From contig NC_086108.1 in NCBI RefSeq assembly GCF_963921235.1, forward strand, positions 78,494,001-78,558,000: DNA of 64,000 bases, given 5' to 3'. The position numbers were made by a program, and so were the translations under genes. A model generated the notes under the pieces. That model did not search any database, was not told where the DNA came from, and saw nothing but the letters and a program-made list of their open reading frames with translations. Origin of the DNA: Mobula hypostoma. Its lineage: Eukaryota. How positions within the stretch are numbered: position 1 is the first letter of the stretch; each line of letters begins with the position of its first letter. Below are positions 3,443 to 64,000 of the stretch, piece after piece.

Positions 3443-3998
3443 TGTTCATCCATCGTCGGCGTCGATGAGGACCTTGACACCATTATGATGGTGTCCAGAC
3501 TAGCGCATGATTTGGATTTAAGTGAGGGAGAGTTTCACAGTGTCAGCCTCACTCTATCTTCCCAATTCCCATCTGAATCCAGTGGCACAACAGAGTTGAG
3601 ATAGCTGGAGATGGGACTAGGTGCAGTGGATGACCAGGATATCTTCTGTGCCTTCTCCTGCTCTACACATTCTACGATGCAGAGACTGCCTTCTTGACCG
3701 TTGGACCTTCCATTGATCTCGTGCACTCAATTCGCCGGAGTCTGTCTTCACATGCTGGGATAGACAACTCCCTATCTCACGGAGGGTTTGAGACCCGTCG
3801 GCTACCCTCACCTGATTTAGCCGGCTTGTCGAAGCCATTGCCCGGGGTGTGGCCGCTGTCATATGCAAACAGCTACAGGGAGCCACAGGTGAGAGCTGAG
3901 TGCCAGGTGGGGACCAAAGGTGGACAAACTGCCTTGAAAAGGATGCGACATGTTCCCCCACCAGAGGTGCTACCCCTCCTTGACACCCCAGACACCCC
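3443..3998 (-). mobile_element. Non-autonomous RTE-like retroelement, copy A
   Basis: Perfect 11-bp TSD tagtgcagatg (3432-3442 and 3999-4009). Reverse-complement homolog of 33082-33646 over its full length, with the same 5' end. Confidence 0.85.
3805..3998 (-). ncRNA. Predicted HDV-like self-cleaving ribozyme at 5' end of copy A
   Basis: RNA reads P1 GGGGUGU/ACACCCC, P2 CUCUCACCUGU/A(U)CAGGUGAGGG, P3 GGC/GCC, L3 starting UCC, GGGCAA, P4 UGGCUU-CGAC-AAGCCG, then G-C-UAA. The candidate catalytic C is at plus-strand position 3820. Confidence 0.65.
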
Positions 3999-10467: not shown

Positions 10468-10620
10468 GGCATATTGGGACATGGTTGTAGTCAGTGTCCA
10501 AAAAAAAGGTTAAAGTAATGGCAGACATGCAATCTTGCATCCCACCAGCACCCAGTCTGACCAATCTGAGTGTCGATCAGGTCATTGAGCTGGTGAAGAT
10601 GGCTTCTAGGTCAGAAGAAG

Positions 10621-13600
10621 ATGTGGTGGAGGTCCTCACTGGCAGTGCTGGTGACTGGCGGATGTACAACAGCATTGTTAGGGGGCAGGAAATGTGATAT
10701 GTTAGTTGACACAGGGCCATCTGTATCGACAACTGACTTTTGCAGACAGGCTATTTATATTGAAGGCATAGGAGGGAAAACAGTGATAGCAGAAAAAAGC
10801 AAGTCGCAAACATTTGAAATGTTGGGGGGTGGGAATCAAATTAAAGCGGCTAGGTGTGAGGAGGTTAGTTCACAACAGAGGGATGGGAACCAGTGCAGAG
10901 AGACAGAGGGGTGTAAAGTGAGCGTAGAAGCAAAAAGTACAAAGGGGAAAAGTAAAAGTGGCAGGCCGACAAATCCAGGGCAAGCATTAAAAAGGGCTAA
11001 GAGAGTTGTAAAAGAGTGCCTGAAGGCTTTATGTGTCAATGCAAGGAGCATTCGTAATAAGGTGGATGAATTGAAAGTGCAGATTGTTATTAATGATTAT
11101 GATATAGTTGGGATCACAGAGACATGGCTCCAGGGTGACCAGGGATGGGAGCTCAACGTTCAGGGATATTCAATATTCAGGAGGGATAGACACGAAGGAA
11201 GGGGAGGTGGGGTGGCGTTGCTGGTTAAAAAAGAGATTAACGCAATAGAAAGGAAGGACATAAGCCGGGAAGATGTGGAATCGATATGGGTAGAGCTGCG
11301 TAACACTAAGGGGCAGAAGACGCTGGTGGGAGTTGTGTACAGGCCACCTAACAGTAGTAGTGAGGTCGGAGATGGTATTAAACAGGAAATTAGAAATGTG
11401 TGCAATAAAGGAACAGCAGTTATAATGGGTGACTTCAATCTACATGTAGACTGGGTGAACCAAATTGGTAAAGGTGCTGAGGAAGAGGATTTCTTGGAAT
11501 GTATGCGGGATGGTTTTTTGAACCAACATGTCGAGGAACCGACTAGAGAGCAGGCTATTCTGGACTGGGTTTTGAGCAATGAGGAAGGGTTAATTAGCGA
11601 TCTTGTCGTGAGAGGCCCCTTGGGTAAGAGTGACCATAATATGGTGGAATTCTTCATTAACATGGAGAGTGACGTAGTTAATTCAGAAACAAAGGTTCTG
11701 AACTTAAAGAGGGGTAACTTTGAAGGTATGAGACATGAATTAGCTAAGATAGACTGGCAAATGACACTTCAAGGATTGACGGTGGATATGCAATGGCAGG
11801 CATTTAAAGGTTGCATGGATGAACTACAACAATTGTTCATCCCAGTTTGGCAAAAGAATAAATCAAGGAAGGTAGTGCACCCGTGGCTGACAAGAGAAAT
11901 TAGGGATAGTATCAATTCCAAAGAAGTAGCATACAAATTAGCCAGAGAAAGTGGCTCACCTGAGGACTGGGAGAAATTCAGAGTTCAGCAGAGGAGGACA
12001 AAGGGCTTAATTAGGAAGGGGAAAAAAGATTATGAGAGAAAACTGGCAGAGAACATAAAAACGGACTGTAAAAGCTTTTATAGATATGTAAAAAGGAAAA
12101 GACTGATAAAGACAAATGTAGGTCCCCTGCAAACAGAAACAGGTGAATTGATTATGGGGAGCAAGGACATGGCAGACCAATTGAATAATTACTTTGGTTC
12201 TGTCTTCACTAAGGAGGACATAAATAATCTTCCAGAAATAGTAAGGGACAGAGGGTCCAGTGAGATGGAGGAACTGAGCGAAATACATGTTAGTAGGGAA
12301 GTGGTGTTAGGTAAATTGAAGGGATTGAAGGCAGATAAATCCCCAGGGCCAGATGGTCTGCATCCCAGAGTGCTTAAGGAAGTGGCCCAAGAAATAGTGG
12401 ATGCATTAGTGATAATTTTTCAAAACTCGTTAGATTCTGGACTAGTTCCTGAGGATTGGAGGGTGGCTAATGTAACCCCACTTTTTAAAAAAGGAGGGAG
12501 AGAGAAACCGGGGAATTATAGGCCGGTTAGCCTAACGTCGGTGGTGGGGAAACTGCTGGAGTCAGTTATCAAGGATGTGATAACAGCACATTTGGAAAGC
12601 GGTGAAATGATCGGACAAAGTCAGCATGGATTTGTGAAAGGAAAATCATGTCTGACGAATCTCATAGAATTTTTTGAGGATGTAACTAGTAGAGTGGATA
12701 GGGGAGAACCAGTGGATGTGGTATATTTGGATTTTCAAAAGGCTTTTGACAAGGTCCCACATAGGAGATTAGTGTGCAAACTTAAAGCACACGGTATTGG
12801 GGGTAAGGTATTGGTGTGGGTGGAGAATTGGTTAGCAGACAGGAAGCAAAGAGTGGGAATAAACGGGACCTTTTCAGAATGGCAGGCGGTGACTAGTGGG
12901 GTACCGCAAGGCTCAGTGCTGGGACCCCAGTTGTTTACAATATATATTAATGACTTGGATGAGGGAATTAAATGCAGCATCTCCAAGTTTGCGGATGACA
13001 CGAAGCTGGGTGGCAGTGTTAGCAGTGAGGAGGATGCTAAGAGGATGCAGGGTGACTTGGATAGGTTGGGTGAGTGGGCAAACTCATGGCAGATGCAATT
13101 TAATGTGGATAAATGTGAAGTTATCCACTTTGGTGGCAAAAATAGGAAAACAGATTATTATCTGAATGGTGGCCGATTAGGAAAAGGGGAGGTGCAACGA
13201 GACCTGGGTGTCATTATACACCAGTCATTGAAAGTGGGCATGCAGGTACAGCAGGCGGTGAAAAAGGCGAACGGTATGCTGGCATTTATAGCGAGAGGAT
13301 TCGAGTACAGGAGCAGGGAGGTACTACTGCAGTTGTACAAGGCCTTGGTGAGACCACACCTGGAGTATTGTGTGCAGTTTTGGTCCCCTAATCTGAGGAA
13401 AGACATCTTTGCCATAGAGGGAGTACAAAGAAGGTTCACCAGATTGATTCCTGGGATGGCAGGTCTTTCATATGAAGAAAGACTGGATGAACTGGGCTTG
13501 TACTCGTTGGAATTTAGAAGATTGAGGGGGGATCTGATTGAAACGTATAAGATCCTAAAGGGATTGGACAGGCTAGATGCAGGAAGATTGTTCCCGATGT

Positions 13601-13821
13601 TGGGGAGGTCTAGAACGAGGGGTCACAGTTTGAGGATAGAGGGGAAGCCTTTTAGGACCGAGGTTAGGAAAAACTTCTTCACACAGAGAGTGGTGAATCT
13701 GTGGAATTCTCTGCCACAGCAAACTGTTGAGGCCAGTTCATTAGCTATGTTTAAAAGGAAGTTAGATATGGCCCTTGTGGCTACAGGGGTCAGGGGGTAT
13801 GGAGGGAAGGCTGGGTTCTGA
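10621..13821 (+). CDS. 1066-aa ORF: ERV protease N-half fused in frame to intact CR1 ORF2 (APE endonuclease + RT)
   Basis: MLVDTG at the N-terminus, then endonuclease motifs NARS, TETW, VYRPP, GDFN, LDWV, SDH and RT motifs [25 protein letters not shown]. No stops. Expression is not shown. Confidence 0.75.
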   Translation: MWWRSSLAVLVTGGCTTALLGGRKCDMLVDTGPSVSTTDFCRQAIYIEGIGGKTVIAEKSKSQTFEMLGGGNQIKAARCEEVSSQQRDGNQCRETEGCKVSVEAKSTKGKSKSGRPTNPGQALKRAKRVVKECLKALCVNARSIRNKVDELKVQIVINDYDIVGITETWLQGDQGWELNVQGYSIFRRDRHEGRGGGVALLVKKEINAIERKDISREDVESIWVELRNTKGQKTLVGVVYRPPNSSSEVGDGIKQEIRNVCNKGTAVIMGDFNLHVDWVNQIGKGAEEEDFLECMRDGFLNQHVEEPTREQAILDWVLSNEEGLISDLVVRGPLGKSDHNMVEFFINMESDVVNSETKVLNLKRGNFEGMRHELAKIDWQMTLQGLTVDMQWQAFKGCMDELQQLFIPVWQKNKSRKVVHPWLTREIRDSINSKEVAYKLARESGSPEDWEKFRVQQRRTKGLIRKGKKDYERKLAENIKTDCKSFYRYVKRKRLIKTNVGPLQTETGELIMGSKDMADQLNNYFGSVFTKEDINNLPEIVRDRGSSEMEELSEIHVSREVVLGKLKGLKADKSPGPDGLHPRVLKEVAQEIVDALVIIFQNSLDSGLVPEDWRVANVTPLFKKGGREKPGNYRPVSLTSVVGKLLESVIKDVITAHLESGEMIGQSQHGFVKGKSCLTNLIEFFEDVTSRVDRGEPVDVVYLDFQKAFDKVPHRRLVCKLKAHGIGGKVLVWVENWLADRKQRVGINGTFSEWQAVTSGVPQGSVLGPQLFTIYINDLDEGIKCSISKFADDTKLGGSVSSEEDAKRMQGDLDRLGEWANSWQMQFNVDKCEVIHFGGKNRKTDYYLNGGRLGKGEVQRDLGVIIHQSLKVGMQVQQAVKKANGMLAFIARGFEYRSREVLLQLYKALVRPHLEYCVQFWSPNLRKDIFAIEGVQRRFTRLIPGMAGLSYEERLDELGLYSLEFRRLRGDLIETYKILKGLDRLDAGRLFPMLGRSRTRGHSLRIEGKPFRTEVRKNFFTQRVVNLWNSLPQQTVEASSLAMFKRKLDMALVATGVRGYGGKAGF

Positions 13822-13918: not shown

Positions 13919-14711
13919 TGAAATCATCAGAGTGCAGCTTCTGGGTCTATCCAAATACTGAGGGCACGATCCTTGGAATAGACATAGTAAGGGAAGCAGG
14001 AGCTGTTATAGATTCAGGAAAGGGAGAAATAATATGGACAAGTCAGGGGCAGAGAACACATACTATCAATAGAGTACACACAACCTTGCCAGCATAGCCG
14101 CAGCTACCCTGATCGTCAGAGACTGGAACCAGGATGGTGTCTGTGGGTTATTTTGTCAACAGTTCCCACAGTTTGGGCTAGGAACAAGCAAGATTGTGGT
14201 CGAGTAAAGGTAAACCCTGTTAAAATAGAGGGGGTCATGTATAAACCCCTATAAGCTGTATCCTATAAAAACTGACACACTGACAGCTGTTCGCAAGTCA
14301 GTAACTATAGTTAGGGATACTGGAATGAATCCTGCAAGCACCACCCTAAAAGAAAGGGGAAGGCACACTTGTGACAAATGGAAATAGAACAGGGAGAAGA
14401 TATCAGTGTGAAGGAAACAACTCTCGCAGGGGAAGCAGAGGACATTTTTATTGATAGGTGTCTGAGTTACACAAACAGGAAGCCACAGACTGGGTGGACC
14501 ATGGTGAAGGAAACAGGTGAAGAATTAGCTTCAGGAGCAGTGCCAGGGGGTTGTTCAGCTCAGGTGACAGAACTAGTGGGTCTGATAGAAGGAGTGTGTG
14601 ACAGTAAAGGCAGACAAGCAAAGATACAGCTGGTGTGACTTCAGGGTGGTGAATGATTATCTGATGGCATGTGCACATCGAGGATTTGTAACGTCAACAG
14701 GGGCAGGTATG

Positions 14712-15148
14712 CAGCACGGGCACCTCATACAACAACCGCTGGAAGCAGTGGTGCTTGTGTTCAGCACGGGCACCACATACAACAACCGCTGGAAGCAGTG
14801 GTGCTTGTGTTCAGCACGGGCACCACATACAACAACCGCTGGAAGCAGTGGTGCTTGTGTTCAGCACGGGCACCTCATACAACAACCGCTGGAAGCAGTG
14901 GTGCTTGTGTTCAGCACGGGCACCTCATACAACAACCGCTGGAAGCAGTGGTGCTTGTTTTCAGCACGGGCACCTCATACAACAACCGCTGGAAGCAGTG
15001 GTGCTTGTGTTCAGCACGGGCACCACATACAACAACCGCTGGAAGCAGTGGTGCTTGTGTTCAGCACGGGCACCTCATACAACAACCGCTGGAAGCAGTG
15101 GTGCTTGTGTTCAGCACGGGCACCTCATACAACAACTGCTGGAAGCAG
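14712..15148 (+). repeat. 50-bp minisatellite, ~8.7 copies, inside ERV RNase H
   Basis: Unit cagcacgggcacctcatacaacaaccgctggaagcagtggtgcttgtgtt repeats at 14712, 14762 ... 15112 with only isolated substitutions. Confidence 0.95.
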
Positions 15149-17142
15149 GGAATCTGCCAGCAAAGGTGGCAGTAATTAAAGGAAAAGCTCACCAGAAAGG
15201 GGAGAGTAAGAACAGTAAGGAAATGAGTGGGCAGCCATCACTGCGAAGAAGGCTGCAGAGGAACAAGAGGCAATTGAAATTGCAAATATGCAGGAAGAAA
15301 CTGAAGCCGGTTAAGTAAAATTAAATGAAGAGGTGGAGACAGGAGAAGGAGAAATAGAAGAGAAAGGGAGCAAAGGAGGGACAAGATGGGAGCTGGACTC
15401 ACAGGGAGGAAGGAGTCGTGATGCTCCCACCATATACGAGGCAGATACTACTGAAGTTATATCATGGGGTGATGCATCAGGGAAGGCGGACCATGACCAT
15501 GAACATGACCCTCCAGCAGGACCCTCTTGGTGGCCAGGGATGGGCAAGAATGTTGAGAAATTCTGCCGCCGTTGAATCATTTGTGCCCGGCATAACTCTG
15601 GTAAGGGCAGAAAGCTACTATATTATTACGGACCACTTCTCCCGGTGGGTAGAGGCTTTCCCAACAAGAGACTGCACCACCAGCACCGCTGTACGGATCC
15701 TAGTTCAGGAAATCCTCCCAAGGTGGGGAACCGCAGTTCAGGTGGACTCGGATCAGGGAGCACATTTCACAGGGAAAGTGATGAAGGAAATGTGCCGACT
15801 GCCAGGGATTCAACAATGGTTCCACGTACCCTACCAGCCTCAGAGAAAGAAAAGATTAACTGAACAATGGAGAATGCCTTTGCAAAAGCTATAATTGAGA
15901 CAGGAAAGACATGGATGATGTAATTACTGTACTAGAAATCTGATGAGATCGTGAACAACCCCAAACCGCACGCTGGGTCTCATCCTCTACAAATTATTGA
16001 TGGGGCAAGCAATATGACTATCTTATGGGGTAATTACGGGTTGCAGTGAACCTGGGACTGACAGAGATAGAACAGCACAATTTGTAACCAACTTAAAGAG
16101 TTGAAGGTCCAAGCAAAACAACAGCAGTGTATTACTGAACAGAGGGAGCTGGAGAGAAAGGACATGGTCCTCCACAGCCGGGTGAGCGTGCTGCCTGAAA
16201 GGGCAAGGTTTGCTCTCAGATGGATAGGACCACAGATGGTACTTTTAACAAGTGACACATGTGTCTGTGTGCAGACTTGGTGACGCAGCCAGTGAAAACA
16301 CTGGACTCAGGTTAAACTGTACAACTCACCTTCTTGTTGCCCCCCCAAAAGACAGAGCAGAGGATCACGTGTACCCAGTAACCATGTAATTACAGAGAAT
16401 CTAAGAGATGAACACCAGACCTGACCACAGTTGATGGAAACAGACCCACAGGAAACATGCCGAGAGCATGACAGAAATCTGTGAATAGCATGCTGAAATG
16501 TAACAGTAACAGCATTTTGTAATGAAGGCTGGTTTCTGAAGGTAGATCATTAGTTGAATCACATGGAATAGAAATGATGTTGGGGAAAATAGATGGGGAG
16601 GGATTTAAGTTAAAGCAGAGACATTAGGTTCCACAACTTCACTGGCATGGCAGATTGAGAAAGATTGCACACGGCATCTGAAAGCAGTCACCCCCAGTTT
16701 GAATGGGGAGTGAATTCAAGTGAGCCGGGCCCTTTCAGTGGTTGGGCCAGCGATTGACTGGACAGTTTGGAAGTGGGTGCCAATGGGGAAAGGTCCTTTC
16801 AGTCATTCAAATGGAGACCTCCCCAACTCCTTCCTGTACATCAATGAGAGGGCCTGCAAGCCTGATGCACTTAGCTTGCTGGTGCCCCTGGAAAGAGAGA
16901 GCTTTTGCTACAAGAGGATGAAGGGGTGAAGACAAGGAATATGACTAAGCTGAAATTGGCCTGCAGAAGAAGAGCCAAAAGACATGAGAATGAGCTGCAG
17001 CTCGAAAGACTGTTGTTCAAGTTTCTGGAACAATCTCTCTGCTTAACATTTTGTAGGTAGTGATTAGGGGTGACAGGGTAGATATAGATACACATGAAGT
17101 AATTGGGGGTGGGGATAATGGAATTCTGAGGGAGGGCATTTC

Positions 17143-18215: not shown

Positions 18216-18452
18216 CATTACATAGTTAAATATTTGTTTACACTTTATTTGACTCTTTAAGCTTACTTGCATATGTGATGCATGTTATATAGCACATAGA
18301 TAAGTTGATTGAAGAGACAAATCAAGAGTTAACAATATACAACCATATAACTGTTTTTTCCCCCAAGGACATTGTCTGACTGTGAGTGTAGCTTTCCCCT
18401 TTCTACTTACAAAGAACTGTATTGGTTTCTTGGCATTCACTACTCTATTTAT

Positions 18453-20529
18453 AAACAATAGACAATAGGTGCAGGAGTAGACCATTCAGCCCTTCGAGCC
18501 AGCACCGCCATTCACTGTGATCATGGCTGATCATCCACAATCGGTATCCAGTTCCTGCCTTATCCCCATAACCTTTGATTCCGCTATCTTTAAGAGCTCT
18601 ATCCATCTCTTTCTTGAAAGCATCCAGAGACTTGGCCTCCACAGCCTTCTGGAGCAGAGCATTCCATATATCCACCACTCTCTGGGTGAAAAAGTTTTTC
18701 CTCAAATCCGCTCTAAATGGCCTACCCCTTATTCTTAAACTGTGGCCCCTGGTTCTGGACTCACCCATCAGCGGCAACATGCTTCCTGCCTCCAGCGTGT
18801 CCAATCCCTTAATAATCTTATATGTTTCAATAAGATCCCCTCTCAGCCTTCTAAATTCCAGAGTACACAAGCCCAGTCGCTCCAATCTTTCGACATATAA
18901 CAGTCCCGCCATCCCGGGAATTAACCTTGTGATCCCACGCTACACTCCCTCAATAGCAAGAATGTCCTTCCTCAAATTTGGAGACAAAAACTGCACACAG
19001 TACTCCAGGTGTAGTCTCACCAGGCCCCTGTACAGCTGCAGAAGGACCTCTTTGCTCTTATACTCAATTTCCCTTGTTATGAAGGCCAGCATGCCATTAG
19101 CTTTCTTCACTGCCTGCTGTACTTGCATGCTTGCTTTCAGTGACTGATGTACAAGAACACCTAGATCTTGTTGTACTTCCCCTTTTCCTAACTTGACTCC
19201 ATTTAGATAATAATCTGCCTTCCTGTTCTTACCACCAAAGTGGATAACCTCACATTCATCCACATTAAACTGCATCTGCCATGCAACTGCCCACTCACCC
19301 AGCCTGTCCAAGTCACCCTGCATTCTCATAACATCCTCCTCATATTTCACACTGCCACCCAGCTTTGTGTCATCAGCAAATTTGCTAATGTTACTTTTAA
19401 TTCCCTCATCTAAATCATTAATATATATTGTAAACAGCTGTGGTCCCAGCACTGAACCCTGCGGTACCCCACTGGTCACTGCCTGCCATTCCAAAAGGGA
19501 CCCGTTAATCGCTACTCTTTGTTTTCTGTCAGCCAGCCAATTTTCAATCCATGTCAGTACTCTGCCCCCAATACCATGTGCCCTAATTTTGCCTACTAAT
19601 CTCCTCTGTGGGACTTTATCAAAGGCTTTCTGAAAGTCCAGGTACACTACATCCACTGGCTCTCCCTTGTCCATTTTCATAGTTACATCCTCAAAAAATT
19701 CCAGAAGATTAGTCAAGCACGATTTCCCCTTCGTAAATCCATGCTGACGCGGACCGATCCTGTTACTGCTATCCAGATGTGTTGTAATTTCATCTTTTAT
19801 AATTGACTCCAGCATCTTTCCCACCACTGACGTCAGGCTAACTGGTCTATAATTCCCCGTTTTCTCTCTTCCTCCCTTCTTGAAGAGAGGGACAACATTA
19901 GCCACCCTCCAATCCGCAGGAACTGATCCTGAATCTATAGAACATTGGAAAATGATTACCAATGCGTCCACAATTTCTAAAGCCACCTCCTTAAGTACCC
20001 TGGGATGCAGACCATCAGGTCCCAGGGACTTATCAGCCTTCAGACCCAACAGCCTATCCAACACCATTTCCTGCCTAATATAAATTTCCTTCAGTTCATC
20101 CATTACCCTAGGTTTTTTGGCCACTATTATATCTGGAAGATTGATTGTGTCTTCCCTAGTGAAGACAGATCCAAAGTACCTGTTCAGCTCGTCTGCTATT
20201 TCCTTGTTCCCCATAATAAATTCACCTGCTTCTGTCTTAAAGGGCCCAATTTTGCTCTTAACTATTTTTTTCCTTTTCACATACCTAAAGAAGCTTTTAC
20301 TATCCTCCTTTATATTCTTGGCTAGTTTACCTTCGTACCTCATTTTTTCTCCACATATTGCCTTTTTAGTTACCTTCTGTTGCTCTTTAAAAGTTTTCCA
20401 ATCCTCCGGCTTCCCACTCGTCTTTGCTATGTTATACTTCTTCTCTTTTATTTTTATACTGTCCATTACTTCCCTTGTCAGCCACGGCCTCCCCTTACTC
20501 CCCTTAGGATCTTTCTTCCTCTTTGGAAT
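18453..20529 (-). mobile_element. CR1 LINE (second subfamily), RT region to tail
   Basis: ORFs 18940-20541 and 18445-18912 give a CR1 RT with one break. Tail (ctattgt)n at ~18453. Confidence 0.95.
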
Positions 20530-22073
20530 GAAGTAGCCCAAGAAATAGTGGAAGCATTAGTGATAATTTTTCAAAACTCGTTAGATTCTGGACTAGTTCC
20601 TGAGGATTGGAGGGTGGCTAATGTAACCCCACTTTTTAAAAAAGGAGGGAGAGAGAAACCGGGCAACTATAAACCAGTTAGCCTAACGTTGGTGGTGGGG
20701 AAACTGCTGGAGTCAGTTATCAAAGATGTGATAACAGCACATTTGGAAAGCGGTGAAATCATCGGACAAAGTCAGCATGGATTTGTGAAAGGAAAATCAT
20801 GTCTGACGAATCTCATAGAATTTTTTGAGGATGTAACTAGTAGAGTGGATAGGGGAGAACCAGTGGATGTGGTATATTTGGATTTTCAAAAGGCTTTTGA
20901 CAAGGTCCCACACAGGAGATTAGTGTGCAAACGTAAAGCACATGGTATTGGAGGTAAGGTATTGATGTGGATAGAGAATTGGTTAGCAGACAGGAATCAA
21001 AGAGTGGGAATAAACGGGACCTTTTCAGAATGGCAGGCAATGACTAGTGGGGTACCGCAAGGCTCAGTGCTGGGACCCCAGTTCTTTACAATATATATTA
21101 ATGACTTGGATGAGGGAATTAAATGCAGCATCTCCAAGTTTGCGGATGACACGAAGCTGGGCGGCAGTGTTAGCTGTGAGGAGTATGCTAAGAGGATGCA
21201 GGGTGACTTGGATAGGTTGGGTGAGTGGGCAAATTCATGGCAGATGCAATTTAATGTGGATAAATGTGAAGTTATCCACTTTGGTGGCAAAAATAGGAAA
21301 ACAGATTATTATCTGAATGGTGGCCAATTGGGAAAAGGGGAGGTGCAACGAGACCTGGGTGTCATTATACACCAGTCATTGAAAGTGGGCATGCAGGTAC
21401 AGCAGGCAGTGAAAAAGGCGAATGGTATGCTGGCATTTATAGCGAGAGGATTCGAGTACAGGAGCAGGGAGGTACTACTGCAGTTGTACAAGGCCTTGGT
21501 GAGACCACACCTGGAGTATTGTGTGCAGTTTTGGTCCCCTAATCTGAGGAAAGACATCCTTGCCATAGAGGGAGTACAAAGAAGGTTCACCAGATTGATT
21601 CCTGGGATGGCAGGACTTTCATATGAAGAAAGACTGGATGAACTAGGCTTGTACTCGTTGGAATTTAGAAGATTGAGGGGGGATCTGATTGAAACGTATA
21701 AAATCTTAAAGGGATTGGACAGGCTAGATGCAGGAAGATTGTTCCCGATGTTGGGGAAGTCCAGAACGAGGGGTCACAGTTTGAGGATAAGGGGGAAGCC
21801 TTTTAGGACTGAGATTAGGAAAAACTTCTTCACACAGAGAGTGGTGAATCTGTGGAATTCTCTGCCACAGGAAACAGTTGAGGCCAGTTCATTGGCTATA
21901 TTTAAGAGGGAGTTAGATATGGCCCATGTGGCTACGGGGATCAGGGGGTATGGAGGGAAGGCTGGTGCAGGGTTCTGAGTTGGATGATCAGCCATGATCA
22001 TAATAAATGGCAGTGCAGGCTCGAAGGGCCGAATGGCCTACTCCTGCACCTATTTTCTATGTTTCTATGTTTC
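20530..22073 (+). mobile_element. Young CR1 LINE, 5'-truncated, joined head-to-head to the previous copy
   Basis: Nearly identical to ~12379-13918. Open RT frame ending at 21978. (tttctatg)n tail. Confidence 0.95.
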
Positions 22074-24560: not shown

Positions 24561-25689
24561 TCATAAGAAAAGTCCTGATTATTAAATTTCAAGCGTAACA
24601 TTGACCAGCAAATGTTTCAAGTGAACCACCATGCTGAAACAAGATAAATTTCCCAGAAGCAGACAAGCTACTTTTCTCAGAAAATAAATGGAAAACATTT
24701 AATTTCATAGGTGGCACTACAATGTTAGGGTATATTCAGAAAGGCATGAGTTCCTAGCAAAAACTCAAGTTAATTATTCTGTTTCTCAGTATGACTTCAG
24801 GTGTAATAATTTGACTCAAATATTATGCAAATCACAGGCATCAACTTAATACAAAATGACAGAGTAAAGCTCTAGCAGTATGCTTATGCAGAGTAAAGTT
24901 CATGTTTACTCAATATTTCTTGGCTTAACATGTAACTCTATAAAGAATTGAAAAACACTGAATGATAGAAAGAAGCTCACAAATCACTTGAACAATTTGT
25001 TACAATCAGATAAATCAGAGATTATGTCTAAAATAATAAAGGAAGACCAGAATTGGATTCTGACTATTAAATAATCTATGATTAGTAAATCAAGTTAGAT
25101 TCCCACATTTGGCTTACAGATATTCAATAAAAACATGTAAGGAATTGAAATGGGAGAAGCTTCATGCCTCTGGTTATCTTCTTTCAGCTTTGATATGTGT
25201 GCCTGACACAGTACATCAAAGCCGTGCAACTTTTTATTATTCTGAAAGGCTGCCTTGGTTGGAATACTTGGGGGTTGAAATTCCCATTTAGATGGGAAGT
25301 GAATGTCGGAGGGAAGGTGGCTGGGTCCAGGTGAGGGAGCAGGTAGAGTGGTTGGTGGTGATAGAAGACTGGAGGCACAAAATAAGCAGGAGCAGGTCTG
25401 TTGATTTCACTGGAAAGAGAAATCAGATGGGATATGTTGCATGCAGCTGCACTACTACTGGGGGTATTCCTGCCAATCATGAATGTTCTCCATGTCATTT
25501 TCCCAGAACGCAGACCAATATGGATTATGTAGACATAACCCAGCAGGTTGTTGCAAACCATTCCAAAATGAGTGAGTTCCATTGGAGGCTAGGGGACTGG
25601 TAGTTGATGGAAATGTGGAGAGAATTGGCTACCGGAAAATAGTGGGGAATATCATTGCTCTGAGAGCCAGCATAGATTCAATAGGCCAA

Positions 25690-26084
25690 GCAACACACAC
25701 AAAAGTTGCTGGTGAACGCAGCAGGCCAGGCAGCATCTCTAGGAAGAGGTGCAGTCGACGTTTCAGGCCGAGACCCTTCCACACACACAAAAGTTGCTGG
25801 TGAACGCAGCAGGCCAGGCAGCATCTCTAGGAAGAGGTGCAGTCGACGTTTCAGGCCGAGACCCTTCCACACACACAAAAGTTGCTGGTGAACGCAGCAG
25901 GCCAGGCAGCATCTCTAGGAAGAGGTGCAGTCGACGTTTCAGGCCGAGACCAGGGTCTCGGCCTGAAACGTCGACTGCACCTCTTCCTAGAGATGCTGCC
26001 TGGCCTGCTGCGTTCACCAGCAACTTTTGTGTGTGTTGCTTGAATTTCCAGCATCTGCAGAATTCCTGTTGTTTGCGTTTTTAA
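25690..26084. mobile_element. Penelope pLTR-derived insertion: three tandem 88-bp inverted units plus one direct unit with tail
   Basis: 14-bp TSD attcaataggccaa (25676-25689 and 26085-26098). Hairpin centre at 25952-25953. Confidence 0.9.
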
Positions 26085-27205: not shown

Positions 27206-29495
27206 TTTAATCAATAATAATGATCTATGGAATTGTGATGAAATTAACTAATTATGGGCTAGAATATGCAGCCGTAGCCACTGCATCATTAATTAGGAAT
27301 GATCTGAGATTGCTTTGGAGCACTTTACTCAATTTGTTAGATTACAAAGATCCATCAGTTATTCTGTTTAATTAAAGCTGCTAGAAATTTGTGTGATTGA
27401 TTTATAGACAGTGCAAGCTAGCATGGAAGAAGATATTGATTCTGACATACATTATCCTAAGATTGTGGCTTAACAAATATTCTTTTCATATTTCCAAAAT
27501 TCTACATCCAACTCTGACAACAGGTGAGCAATATGAGTAATTACAACATTCAAATCGAGTCTAATAAATCCAGGGTTTCACTAAAGTCCAAATAACCAAT
27601 GCCCTGCAATAAATCATGGAAATTTTTTATATTCCTTTCTGTCAAATACAGTACACAATTTAGAAGTGTAACATTTTCACTTGAATGATTAAAGTGTTAG
27701 CAAACTCAACGCCCTTCAAAAAGGAATTTGCTGCTGCATTAGTACCCCCATCTTCTACCTTATCTCTACCACCAGTATACCATGCATCACCCATAAGATA
27801 TACTGCTGCAGATTACAAAGGCTGATTCAATGCTCTCTCTCAAAGCTATCATGTGAAGGACATCACTGGTGTAAATATTGGAATTACCCAGGCAATAGCA
27901 TTAAACTAGACAGACATCACAATTCAAGAAGGTACAAGAACATTCAAAAGACAGTTAGGAATGGGCTATGATGCCCACAAGTGCTACAGAAGAGTGTCCC
28001 AGATCAAACATCCATTCAAGGAAAGATCAGTTTATATATTTTGCTGGTGTCAGCTTCTAAGTGAAGTGACATTCATAAGATGGCATTGACCTCCTATAAG
28101 CAGCAGCATGGCATGTAAATTAAGTGGAACCTTTCACCTGTTATATGCTTTCAGAATAAATCACTGTCTTCACAAAATACAACTTCTATTTGGCCCAAAA
28201 GGTGACATAATTCCCTCAACATGATGCTCTCACTCGGTGTATGCTGCGCTTTGCAGAGGAAGAACAGAGAAAGAAAAGAAAATGCCTGTGAAAGGATGGG
28301 GATCAAGAGAAATTGAATATCTCAAATGGTTGTAGTGTTGGCAGACAGTAAGGTGATGAAGGTGTTTCAATCACAGATGATCTATCATCTGGAGGGGGTG
28401 TAAATAGATCACACATGAAACCCAAGGACCATTACTGTTGTACTATGTTATAACATTAATGTGTAGATAATTTCACTTGGTCTGCTTTGTGGACTATGAT
28501 TTGCAGAATCAATACAAGAAGTGTCTATGTCTGGAAACCCTTTACATCTCATACTGCCTCTGCTCCACAAAGAAATGAAGCTGCAGATGTTGAACATAGA
28601 CATCACCCTAATAACTACATGTGTCCTTCAGTTATGCTGCTCTTCAGACACTGTCTCATATCTCTGTCTGTATGGCTGTCTTCGCTGGTGCTGACAGGGT
28701 TTTGTAGCATAGGTCATAATGAGTCTCTGCACTGCTTTGCAAGTATTGCAGGACAACCCCCTCAATGATGCAGACAAATAAAACAGGAAATGCTTGAAAC
28801 ATTGAATGGTCAGGCAGCATTTGCTTTCTCTTTCCCAGTTTGGATGAAGGCCAGTGACCCTTTATTAGAAATGGGAAAGAGAAAACAAGTTAAATTTTAA
28901 CAGTTACACATTTAAAATCAAAAGCAACTTAAAACCAATTTGTTTTCTCTCTTTCCCATTCTGAATAGTCACCTCCGTCTGAGTGAGCATGTCAGGAGTC
29001 AAATACTGGAGAAAATACTCCCTGTTAGCTTGCACACTCTCTGGACTTTGGAAGGTGTTTGAGCAAGTTCTGAAGGTATCCTGCCAAGACCCTGATGGAA
29101 GCAGAGTGTCAATTTAAATAATAACACCAAAGTATTGCAATGCACTCCTATCCATACTGAAGTTGACCCACTATGGCATAGATTATATTGTTTAGGTTGG
29201 TAAGAAAATAAATGGGTGTTGTGTGGAATAATGTTAAGTTAGCTAATGTAAGGAATGCACAGAGGTGCCCAACTCAGTTTTGCATTAGGTGCCATCTGAA
29301 CTGGAAGCAAGCATGTTCTACAGCGGATTCACAGCACTAAAATGCAAAACAATTTAATTTCTTAATTTTAATTTCTATGTAATATAAAGAAGAATTGAAA
29401 GATCGGTTAAGTAAGCGCATTGAAAATTGATGAAGTCATGCACTTGTTTAAACAAATGAATACAGTACTCCTAATTACAATAGTAATAAATTCCA

Positions 29496-29817
29496 GCAAC
29501 ACACATCAAAGTTGCTGGTAAACGCAGCAGGCCAGGCAGCATCTGTAGGAAGAGGTGCAGTTGATGTTTCAGGCCGAGACCCTTCGTCAGGACTAACTGA
29601 AGGAAGAGTGAGTAAGGGATTTGAAAGTTGGAGGGGGAGGGGGAGATCCAAAATGATAGGAGAAGACAGGAGGGGTTAGTCCTGACGAAGGGTCTCGGCC
29701 TGAAACGTCGACTGCACCTCTTCCTACAGATGCTGCCTGGCCTGCTGCGTTCACCAGCAACTTTGATGTGTGTTGCTTGAATTTCCAGCATCTGCAGAAT
29801 TCCTGTTGTTTGAGTGA
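29496..29817. mobile_element. Penelope insertion with inverted plus direct pLTR
   Basis: 12-bp TSD taataaattcca (29484-29495 and 29818-29829). The minus arm 29496-29675 is complementary to the plus arm starting at 29676. Confidence 0.9.
29678..29713 (+). ncRNA. Minimal type I hammerhead ribozyme motif
   Basis: AGUC CUGACGA AGGGUCUCGGCCU GAAAC GUC GACU. Stem I is AGUC/GACU, the CUGANGA and GAAA core is conserved, and a palindromic ACGU replaces stem III. Predicted cleavage after C29709. Confidence 0.7.
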
Positions 29818-32970: not shown

Positions 32971-33081
32971 TGAAGAAGATATTTTGAAATTAATTGTTAA
33001 CAGTTATGTCATTGCATACAGTCATATCTTTACTTAAGATCTTTCAAATGGACTGGGGTTGCTTGTAATTGTACATTAATT

Positions 33082-33274
33082 GGGGTGTCTGGGGTGTCAG
33101 GGAGGGGTAGCACCTCTGGTGGGGGAACATGTCGCATCCTTTCAGGGCGGTTAGTCCACCTTTGGTCCCCACCTGGCACTCAGCTCTCACCTGTGGCTCC
33201 CCGTAGCTGTTTGCATGCGACAGCGGCCACACCCTGGGCAACGGCTTCGACAAGCCGGCTAAACCAGGTGAGGG
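33082..33274 (+). ncRNA. Predicted HDV-like ribozyme at 5' end of copy B
   Basis: P1 33082-88 (or 33091-97) pairs with 33229-35 (G1·U). P2 33184-94/33263-74. P3 33195-97/33226-28. L3 UCC pairs with GG 33236-37 (P1.1). P4 33242-57. Candidate catalytic C33259 in GCUAA. The motif CUGGGCAAC matches genomic HDV. Confidence 0.7.
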
Positions 33275-33646
33275 TAGCCGACGGGTCTCAAACCCTCGGT
33301 GTGATAGGGAGTTGTCTATCCCAGCATGTGAAGACAGACTCCAGTGGATTGAGCGGACGAGACCAATGGAAGGTCCAATGGTCAAGAAGGCAGTCTCTGC
33401 AAGCGTCGTGGAACGTGTAGAGCAGGACAAGACACAGAAGACGTCCTGGTCATCCACTGCGCCTAGTCCCATCTCCAGCCATCTGGACTCTGTCTTGCCA
33501 CTGGATCCAGACGGGAATTGGGAAGAGAGAGTGAGGCTGACGCTGCGCAACTCTCCCTCACTTAAATCCAAATCGCACGCTAATCTCGACCCCATCATAA
33601 TGGTGTCAATGTCCTCATCGACGTCAACGATGGACGAACAACAACA
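33082..33646 (+). mobile_element. Non-autonomous RTE-like retroelement, copy B
   Basis: (ACA)n tail and TSD acattaa (33073-33079 and 33647-33653). Homologous to 3443-3998. Confidence 0.85.
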
Positions 33647-34039
33647 ACATTAACAATCACTGATCTTTTTTTTCCCACAAGAAACTAGAACTAGAACAAT
33701 AACTGTGTTATAAATACTTACTGATTCAAATTTCCTTCACTCTGTCATCCAAGTTACAGTCAGAACTTCAAGTTGGTAACCAATTGAATACAAACTAATT
33801 AATGTGAAAAATTTAAATTGTTTACTCAAGTTCAAAATACTCTGCATGCAATGTTCTGTTTTGTTTGAATGTTTTATTTCAGCACTGCCACTTTTCCCTT
33901 GTGACTCAGCATTACTTTTATGTGAACTTTATGCTTTGTTTATATTACCCAAATAAATTAAACTGAGCTGTTTATAAAGCCAGAGGACAAGGTGTATACT
34001 TCGTCTGTATACCACATTCAAATCTTGGGCACCCAATTC

Positions 34040-62611: not shown

Positions 62612-64000
62612 GAACATAGAAACATAGAAAATAGGTGCAGGAGTAGGCCATTCGGCCCTTCGAGCCTGCACCGCCATTTATTATGATCATGGCTGATCAT
62701 CCAACTCAGAACCCCGCCCCAGCCTTCCCTCCATACCCCCTGACCCCTGTAGCCACAAGGGCCATATCCAACTCCCTCTTAAACATAGCCAATGAACTGG
62801 CCTCAACAGTTTCCTGTGGCAGAGAATTCCACAGATTCACCACTCTCTGTGTGAAGAAGTTTTTCCTAATCTCGGTCCTAAAAGGCTTCCCCTCAATCCT
62901 CAAACTGTGACCCCTCGTTCTGAAATTCCCCAACATCGGGAACAATCTTCCTGCATCTAGCCTGTCCAATCCCTTTAGGATCTTATACGTTTCAATGAGA
63001 TTCCCCCCTCAATCTTCTAAATTCCAACGAGTACAAGCCCAGTTCATCCAGTCTTTCTTCATATGAAAGTCCTGCCATCCCAGGAATCAATCTGGTGAAC
63101 CTTCTTTGTACTCCCTCTATGGCAAAGATGTCTTTCCTCAGATTAGGGGACCAAAACTGCACACAATACTCCAGGTGTGGTCTCACCAGGGCCTTGTACA
63201 ACTGCAGTAGTACCTCCCTGCTCCTGTACTCGAATCCTCTCGCTATAAATGCCAGCATACCATTCGCTTTTTTCACCGCCTGCTGTACCTGCATGCCCAC
63301 TTTCAATGACTGGTGTATAATGACACCCAGGTCTCGTTGCACCTCTCCTTTTCCTAATCGGCCACCATTCAGATAATAATCTGTTTTCCTATTTTTGCCA
63401 CCAAAGTGGATAACTTCACATTTATCCACATTAAATTGCATCTGCCATGAGTTTGCCCACTCACCCAACCTATCCAAGTCACCCTGCATCCTCCTCACTG
63501 CTAACACTGCCACCCAGCTTCGTGTCATCCGCAAACTTGGAGATGCTGCATTTAATTCCCTCATCCAAGTCATTAATATATATTGTAAACAACTGGGGTC
63601 CCAGCACTGAGCCTTGCGGTACCCCACTAGTCACCGCCTGCCATTCTGAAAAGGTCCCGGTTATTCCCACTCTTTGCTTCCTGTCTGCTAACCAATTCTC
63701 TACCCACACCAATACCTTACCCCCAATACCGTGTGCTTTAAGTTTGCACACTAATCTCCTGTGTGGGACCTTGTCAAAAGCCTTTTGAAAATCCAAATAT
63801 ACCACATCCACTGGTTCTCCCCTATCCACTCTACTAGTTACATCCTCAAAAAATTCTATGAGGTTCGTCAGACATGATTTTCCTTTCACAAATCCATGCT
63901 GACTTTGTCCGATCATTTCACCGCTTTCCAAATGTGCTGTTATCACATCCTTGATAACTGACTCCAGCAGTTTCCCCACCACCGACGTTAGGCTAACCGG
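62612..64000 (-). mobile_element. Young CR1 LINE (runs off the window)
   Basis: Nearly identical to 12521-13918 in reverse complement, with two small frameshifts. (tttctatg)n tail at 62612. Confidence 0.95.

Follow-up and report, generated by a model that had tools for sequence, protein, structure and literature searches.

A short RTE-derived element with a predicted HDV-like ribozyme head and a deletion junction in a putative helix between the two ends of its parent LINE

Introduction

Bipartite non-autonomous elements of the RTE clade have been described, including RTE-N2_Lch, WALLSI3, RTESINE1/2, and Bov-A, and, according to the part of that survey cited here, the reason why only a few LINE clades yield bipartite derivatives is not known (Kojima 2018, PMC5786205). 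HDV-like ribozymes are located at the 5′ ends of R2, RTE, Ingi/L1Tc, R4, R1, and LOA retrotransposons (as summarized in passages of PMC5786205 and PMC6765202). Short, internally deleted elements with a 5′ HDV-like ribozyme for which cleavage was demonstrated are R2 SIDEs and NARTc/SIDER, according to the cited parts of PMC3414825 and PMC4035085, respectively. Ribozyme-headed, internally deleted LINEs are already known and the class of the element described here is ordinary. For biotechnology, RTE-based gene-writing templates, as outlined in parts of PMC13708176, place the cargo between cognate UTRs.

In this study, we analyzed such an element in a stretch of 64 kb (the window) from a genome of 3.48 Gb in 200 contigs. 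Judged by sequence comparison, what is new is that the deletion junction lies in the loop of a predicted 5′UTR:3′UTR helix, in which junctions from a second local family and from marsupial WALLSI SINEs are likewise located.

Results

The element and its boundaries

An initial annotation had reported two TSD-flanked copies of about 560 bp with a common 5′ end. Both were recovered, at 33082-33646 (plus strand) and 3998-3443 (minus strand), with TSDs of 7 bp and 11 bp and 90.7% identity to each other; the window, which is rich in LINE fragments, holds no others. The features of the locus are as follows:

33082..33646 (+): whole element, by sequence comparison a bipartite non-autonomous RTE of 565 bp
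33073..33079 (+): left TSD, 7 bp, read from the sequence
33080-33081 (+): two extra T between the left TSD and G1, probably non-templated
33647..33653 (+): right TSD, 7 bp, read from the sequence
3443..3998 (−): second copy with an 11-bp TSD (4009-3999/3442-3432) and the 5′ end of the first copy
33275..33596 (+): remainder of the RTE 5′ UTR; 93.6% to parent copy L396 over bases 48-515 and 74% to RTE-A, with a block common with RTE-1_PSi and RTE-3_AMi
33585..33610 (+): putative junction helix with a 5′ arm from the LINE 5′ UTR (33585-33595), a 3′ arm from the LINE 3′ UTR (33600-33610), and the junction in the loop
33611..33646 (+): RTE 3′ terminal stem-loop (33611-33635) followed by an (AAC)n tail; 86.7% to the parent 3′ tip and 84% to the RTE-A tip

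The only frame overlapping 33082-33646 is a minus-strand stop-to-stop frame, so that the element has no real ORF, as had been noted. The annotated absence of a tRNA head was likewise borne out: ARAGORN with default settings gave no tRNA, neither a B box nor a T-run terminator of Pol III was present, and these checks together with Rfam revealed no tRNA, 5S, or 7SL head with A and B boxes. At a lowered threshold, ARAGORN reported one anticodon-less match over the P4/P2 hairpins. An Rfam scan of the element gave no HDV-family match at the gathering score or up to E 10, and a plain MFE fold, a model outside of which pseudoknots fall, gave no signal (z-score −0.58).

Elsewhere in the window there are LINE copies at 10597-13821 (+), 18445-21978, and 62613-64000, which we take to be CR1-type and one of which has a stop-free frame of 1,074 aa. 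A tandem array with a 50-nt period (14650-15199) adjoins a fragment at 15358-15894 that is presumably integrase-like, judging by its motif. The members of a short repeat family (25682-26078, 29488-29815) have near-perfect inverted arms 2-174 nt apart.

Copy number and 5′ ends

Exact matches to a 27-nt core put the family size at no fewer than 1,120 genomic copies, i.e., at least that number (reversed control 0), and a first look gave 4,215 candidates genome-wide. Copies diverge by 2.8-3.8% from their own majority sequence. Half or more of the sampled words of the element were present in 17 public runs from five organisms; runs with small word shares contained fragments only.

The predicted pile-up of 5′ ends at G1 was found in two samples, with upstream DNA differing from copy to copy. 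By the core, 40 copies were chosen from the first 44 places in the list of matches; one of them is a parent LINE and four belong to the sister family. In this set, the start was at positions 1-3 in 27, at 6 in one, at 9-10 in five, and further in for seven. Among 29 other copies chosen by their 3′ end, it was at 1-4 in 21, at 9 in one, and further in for seven. Copies of the parent LINE start at positions 1-3 in 15 of 30 cases. The exception with respect to upstream DNA is L391, in which additional repeats of the 9-nt unit of the head are present. In one DNA run, which may be from the source sample, 47 and 49 contigs (96) had loose, unrelated ends at 33081 and 33082 (agreement 0.37-0.38); being contigs, these data are blind to RNA ends, strand, and level. 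The family has a fixed 5′ end, which a promoter would likewise produce. With many copies, TSDs, a microsatellite tail, and no coding capacity, it has the properties of a bipartite non-autonomous RTE.

L325, L391, and L085 comprise a tandem pair of elements spaced by about 575 bp and copies whose 5′ junction contains additional 9-nt head units.

Origin from an RTE LINE

Bases 1-515 of the element correspond to the 5′ UTR, and the last 45 or so to the 3′ tip, of an RTE LINE in the same genome. This is the autonomous partner sharing both ends that the initial annotation had called for. Its copy L396, which surfaced among the core-selected copies, is 93.6% identical to the element over bases 48-515 and 86.7% over bases 518-562, and an RTE ORF separates the two blocks. 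The majority sequences of the parent (30 loci, L396-L426) and of the short element show 4 differences in 515 positions. Mean divergence is 5.1% for the parent, 3.2% for the short element, and 2.2% for RTE-A, whose sample is biased towards young copies.

RTE-A is a young relative with a single EN+RT ORF; its copy L155 has an open frame of 1,129 aa with endonuclease and RT domains. The similarity of RTE-A to the element is 74% over bases 231-509 and 84% over the terminal 32 bases, and its protein is 54-69% identical to that of the parent. Blocks of the UTR and the 3′ tip also match Repbase RTE-1_PSi, RTE-3_AMi, RTE-2_CPB, and RTE-1_NV (compared by eye in part of the supplement of PMC5786205). 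By its sequence, the parent belongs to the RTE clade. Since the 5′ UTR and the 3′ tip match both the parent and the Repbase RTEs, we regard the element as a bipartite non-autonomous RTE. Of the initial description as a SINE-like element, the flanking TSDs hold, while it is not an independent SINE: it is a non-autonomous RTE derivative that arose by internal deletion, and its predicted ribozyme head comes from the LINE instead of having been added to a SINE.

Other candidates were rejected. RTE-A and RTE-B are only 72-74% alike to the element and were discarded as parent. For Vingi/Ingi, an RT motif was present at 117 places, and none of 30 loci shares sequence with the element; the families at L095-L124 are presumably Vingi-like, and the one family with its 3′ end read ends in (ATG)n. 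DUF6451-type RTEs had element ends beside the match in 0 of 30 loci, and a chance neighbor in one of these loci (L060) led to RTE-A.

Related RTE families in the genome

A sister family (L427-L456; also L368, L373, L376, L384) has the 515-nt 5′ part of the element and the parent 3′ tip, separated by a 145-nt stretch from a tRNA-like SINE in which A and B boxes are present. This structure was present in 22 of 30 loci, the other eight being the free SINE with another tail. The second RTE LINE, family C (L204-L225, L457-L459), has a canonical HDV head and a 460-nt bipartite derivative ending in (AAG)n. Several other ribozyme-headed short families (L306-L322) of about 500-560 nt have different RTE-type 3′ tips. 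In RTE-B (L326-L355), the head repeats the 9-nt P1 unit exactly, with 5′ ends at both repeats and a C·A mismatch at P1 pair 7.

The heads of RTE-A vary. Many copies (e.g., L166:238-900, L175, L188:265-500) begin with a GC-rich head that reads as an intronless coding piece of glyoxalase fold (Glyoxalase_4, E 2.7e-11), which we assume to resemble methylmalonyl-CoA epimerase; others have a tandem-repeat head or an HDV head. From the sequences, RTE-A appears to have traded the ribozyme for a captured host mRNA front. HDV-headed copies L196-L200 have in common an upstream tandem repeat, rich in pyrimidines, in place of the initial G bases of P1; they may stem from a fusion that was propagated although its ribozyme is broken.

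The HDV-like fold

Bases 1-193 fit an HDV fold with the following parts:

33082..33088 (+): P1 5′ strand, predicted cleavage just 5′ of G33082; 5′ ends at 1-3 in 27/40 copies, G-C to A-U double change in relatives
33089..33183 (+): long J1/2 stem-loop by constrained folding, including a second GGGGUGU (33091-33097) as a possible minor alternative P1 strand; 5/40 copies start at 9-10
33184..33194 (+): P2 5′ strand; C-G, U-A, and G-C exchange among families
33195..33204 (+): P3 5′ strand (33195-33197) and canonical L3 with U33198, P1.1 CC (33199-33200), and G33203; invariant in alignment A2
33205..33225 (+): 21-nt insert in L3, non-canonical, with a 5-6 bp hairpin; 98.5% of cells paired, loop variable at 5-9 nt, one double-change pair
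33226..33237 (+): P3 3′ strand, P1 3′ strand (33229-33235), and P1.1 GG (33236-33237)
33242..33257 (+): P4 hairpin; double changes at 4/6 pairs
33258..33274 (+): J4/2 with predicted catalytic C33259 (C in 15/15 A2 rows) and P2 3′ strand (33263-33274)

All HDV elements claimed at the outset (P1, P2, P3, P1.1, P4, G-C-UAA, and C33259) are present in canonical order in both copies, and P2 has in addition a bulged base at 33264 that had been overlooked. P2, a 3-bp P3, a 2-bp P1.1, and P4 would form a nested double pseudoknot. A relaxed HDV descriptor, written after viewing the element so that its match to the element is not independent, hit these two copies only in the window and nothing in 384 kb of shuffled window. 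GGGGUGU occurs twice, at 33082 and 33091; we prefer 33082 as G1 on account of homology, folding energy (about 10 kcal/mol), and 5′ ends. In the alignment, G33082 is homologous to G1 and the second GGGGUGU falls in the J1/2 stem.

Alignment A2 comprises 15 hand-picked related heads, whose relatedness inflates the shuffle test: across 35 pairs, 92.1% were paired with 15 double changes, a result reached in 0 of 500 shuffles, and slid controls gave 37-47%. By helix, pairing was 88% for P2, 100% for P3, 100% for P1.1, and 90% for P4. P1 has 7 bp starting at G1, with a G-C to A-U double change in 2 of the 13 A2 rows with letters. P3 and P1.1 are invariant and thus show conservation only, no covariation; a G-C to A-U exchange in P3 was seen in one metagenome RTE. 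Between the element, RTE-A, and family C, one P2 pair is C-G, U-A, or G-C, and P4 is altered on both sides; the family C head has P1 position 6 changed on both strands. U33198 and G33203, the U·G pair in L3, are invariant in A2, as is C33259, which is C in 55 of 56 copies covering the position (one gap). The expected conservation of the pairings and of the catalytic C was thus observed, with double changes in P1, P2, and P4. Within the family, every core pair is kept in only 14 of 37 copies, an uncompensated G6A in P1 occurs in 12 of 65 and marks a subfamily by co-segregating sites, and a competing downstream hairpin of 5-6 bp can cover C33259. Of the usual features of HDV-like ribozymes, the short L3 and a match to an Rfam HDV-type model were not found. 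Overall, the HDV-like fold of this predicted ribozyme is well supported and of unusual build.

Canonical heads with a 7-nt L3 that are homologous to that of the element are present on family C and on a minority of RTE-A copies (HDV core in 2 of 30 in one sample and 8 in a further set). Most RTE-A copies with an intact N-terminus have other, ribozyme-free 5′ heads or are truncated, and the ribozyme is therefore not obligatory for the spread of an RTE. On metagenome RTE loci, many of which are short of upstream DNA, the relaxed descriptor found a head in 3 of 80 and none on the reverse strands.

The L3 hairpin

L3 of known HDV-like ribozymes has 7-8 nt. The canonical fold claimed for the element holds for helix order and C33259 but not for L3, which has 28 nt: the 7 nt of the canonical loop are followed by a hairpin insert of 21 nt that the initial annotation had missed. 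The insert sits 3′ of the conserved U·G pair, which keeps its canonical spacing. The G in L3 is needed for cleavage in R2 (PMC3774820), and the residue after it was reported as bulged and least conserved (PMC3386971); given the cited parts of these papers and the spacing kept, the insertion site is plausible.

Heads of RTE-A and family C and all three metagenome heads are devoid of the insert. It is present on two autonomous RTE families, the parent and RTE-B, and on several short families. A long-L3 pattern gave 2,813 genomic matches (control 0). Most of 20 variants fetched were from other lineages with 67-80% identity, a 5-6 bp stem, and a loop of 5-9 nt; a few worn copies fold poorly. No report of an L3 insertion in HDV-like ribozymes was found in titles and abstract openings, a search that the original descriptor papers fall outside.

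A putative helix between the two LINE ends at the deletion junction

In the majority sequence, 11 Watson-Crick pairs would close a loop of 4 nt that contains the junction of the two LINE parts; three private changes weaken the helix in the present copy. RTE-A has different yet complementary arms at homologous places, with about five double changes (by eye). For an anchored test, the 5′ arm was set on a conserved UTR motif and partners were swapped among 14 of 23 full-length RTEs, leaving out eight without the 5′ anchor and one with a short 3′ end. With offsets chosen after viewing the data, pairing energy was −18.8 kcal/mol with the own 3′ end versus −12.8 kcal/mol with others, a difference reached in 0 of 200,000 permutations. 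When the test was restricted to the 11 metagenome elements, the count was 1 of 200,000, and six shifted windows were null (p 0.39-0.99). By this measure, the helix arms are partner-specific across the 14 RTEs, although RTE-A, L240, and L287 rank their own partner only mid-table. Earlier anchored runs with stem-loop filters, which kept 5 and 8 of 23 elements, gave p 0.016 and 7 of 200,000. An unanchored scan for 40-nt duplexes gave no signal (better than all shuffles in 0 of 22), and an unanchored ungapped scan, in which some windows were mis-set, was weak (Fisher p 0.04).

Derivatives of family C, which were held out, join 392-396 nt of the 5′ end to 52-64 nt of the 3′ end through at least two junctions, all of them between arms of about 15 bp. 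The 145-nt foreign cargo of the sister family sits between the same arms as the junction of the element. RTE-1_PSi and RTE-3_AMi each have arms of 9 bp with a single double change. The junctions of the marsupial SINEs WALLSI1, 1A, and 2 fall between these arms (both by eye). A literature search gave no report of a UTR-UTR helix of RTEs, which is limited evidence of novelty.

Discussion

Taken together, we consider it probable (about 0.68) that the element, in which an internal deletion has joined ~515 bases from the start of an RTE LINE to ~45 from its end, has a 5′ end set by self-cleavage of an HDV-like ribozyme with an additional hairpin in L3, and that it is copied in trans by the RTE protein. 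Copies would be transcribed within longer Pol II transcripts, and C33259 would cut the RNA 5′ of G33082. The RTE protein would bind the 3′ stem-loop and use a nick to prime reverse transcription; at the 5′ junction, a few bases would be added without a template. Mobilization in trans is suggested by the common 3′ stem-loop and the overlapping ages. In the parent RNA, a 5′ UTR strand may pair with the one immediately preceding the 3′ stem-loop, so that the ORF is looped out; either the reverse transcriptase would skip the loop or selection would keep both arms, and the junction would become fixed in the helix loop. Such a helix may explain why mini-elements arise.

As any fixed RNA start yields a pile-up of 5′ ends, the fold might instead be an inheritance that the L3 hairpin disabled or repurposed, with an internal Pol II promoter at the G run setting the 5′ end. 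The amplification of the uncompensated G6A subfamily and the spread of RTE-A with ribozyme-free heads would agree with this. We nevertheless judge it unlikely, because the equivalents of U20, G25, and C75 (in the commonly used HDV residue numbering), P3, and P1.1 are invariant across hairpin lineages that are only 67-80% identical, P4 has double changes, the hairpin is carried by two autonomous LINE families, and RTE-B has 5′ ends at both exact repeats of the P1 strand (by eye). The head could also be dual, an internal promoter as DNA and an active ribozyme as RNA, like Pr77 of L1Tc, in which case host read-through would not be needed. The described parts of L1Tc/NARTc provide a precedent (PMC4035085), and contigs of three possibly-RNA runs weakly point the same way by covering the element and not the flanks of this locus; however, if transcription began at +1, a ribozyme that cuts at this position would serve no purpose, and this option appears very unlikely to us. 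We retain self-cleavage of a longer transcript as the likely source of the 5′ end.

For the helix, the complementarity may be real without being the cause of the deletion, both arms being needed in cis or reflecting shared history. Skipping and selection predict identical junctions, and the mid-table ranks of RTE-A, L240, and L287 fit a non-causal role. Partner-specific pairing at divergent sequences cannot stem from the shared history of one strand, though, and at least two different junctions in family C as well as many in the sister family lie in the loop. A non-causal helix thus seems the less probable option, yet one to be taken seriously. The broadest version of our preferred reading is that RTE RNAs loop via a covarying 5′UTR:3′UTR helix that sets the break points of bipartite mini-elements and RTE-derived SINE bodies, which would account for their origin from this clade, and that a large RTE lineage carries an active HDV subtype with an L3 hairpin missed by standard descriptors; this we put forward tentatively, at somewhat under even odds.

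The end-to-end helix makes testable the question, raised in the cited part of Kojima 2018 (PMC5786205), why few LINE clades yield bipartite derivatives. It also bears on gene-writing templates as described in parts of PMC13708176; the sister family already has a 145-nt cargo between the arms. If the ribozyme is active, the L3 hairpin widens the HDV fold at its core, and many genomic ribozymes would have been missed, as the 2,813 long-L3 matches indicate.

Like RTE-N2_Lch, WALLSI3, RTESINE1/2, and Bov-A, the element consists of an RTE 5′ part and a 3′ tip, without an ORF or a small-RNA head. It differs in that a full predicted ribozyme head is resolved here, and end-to-end pairing is not mentioned in the cited part of PMC5786205. 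With retrotransposon HDV-like ribozymes it shares the helix order, G1, the U·G in L3, a two-pair P1.1, the catalytic C in J4/2, a long J1/2, and the 5′ location, whereas a 28-nt L3 that includes a conserved hairpin, the missing Rfam match, and an activity that is predicted set it apart. In being short, non-coding, high-copy, and equipped with a LINE-derived tail, the element resembles tRNA-, 5S-, and 7SL-headed SINEs, but neither a Pol III head nor a B box or terminator was found in it, and it is wholly LINE-derived. Like R2 SIDEs and NARTc/SIDER, it is short and internally deleted and has kept a 5′ HDV-like ribozyme, here a predicted one. It comes, however, from another LINE clade, and it is dispersed, flanked by TSDs, and ends in an (AAC)n tail, in contrast to R2 SIDEs, which the cited parts of the literature describe as rDNA-specific.
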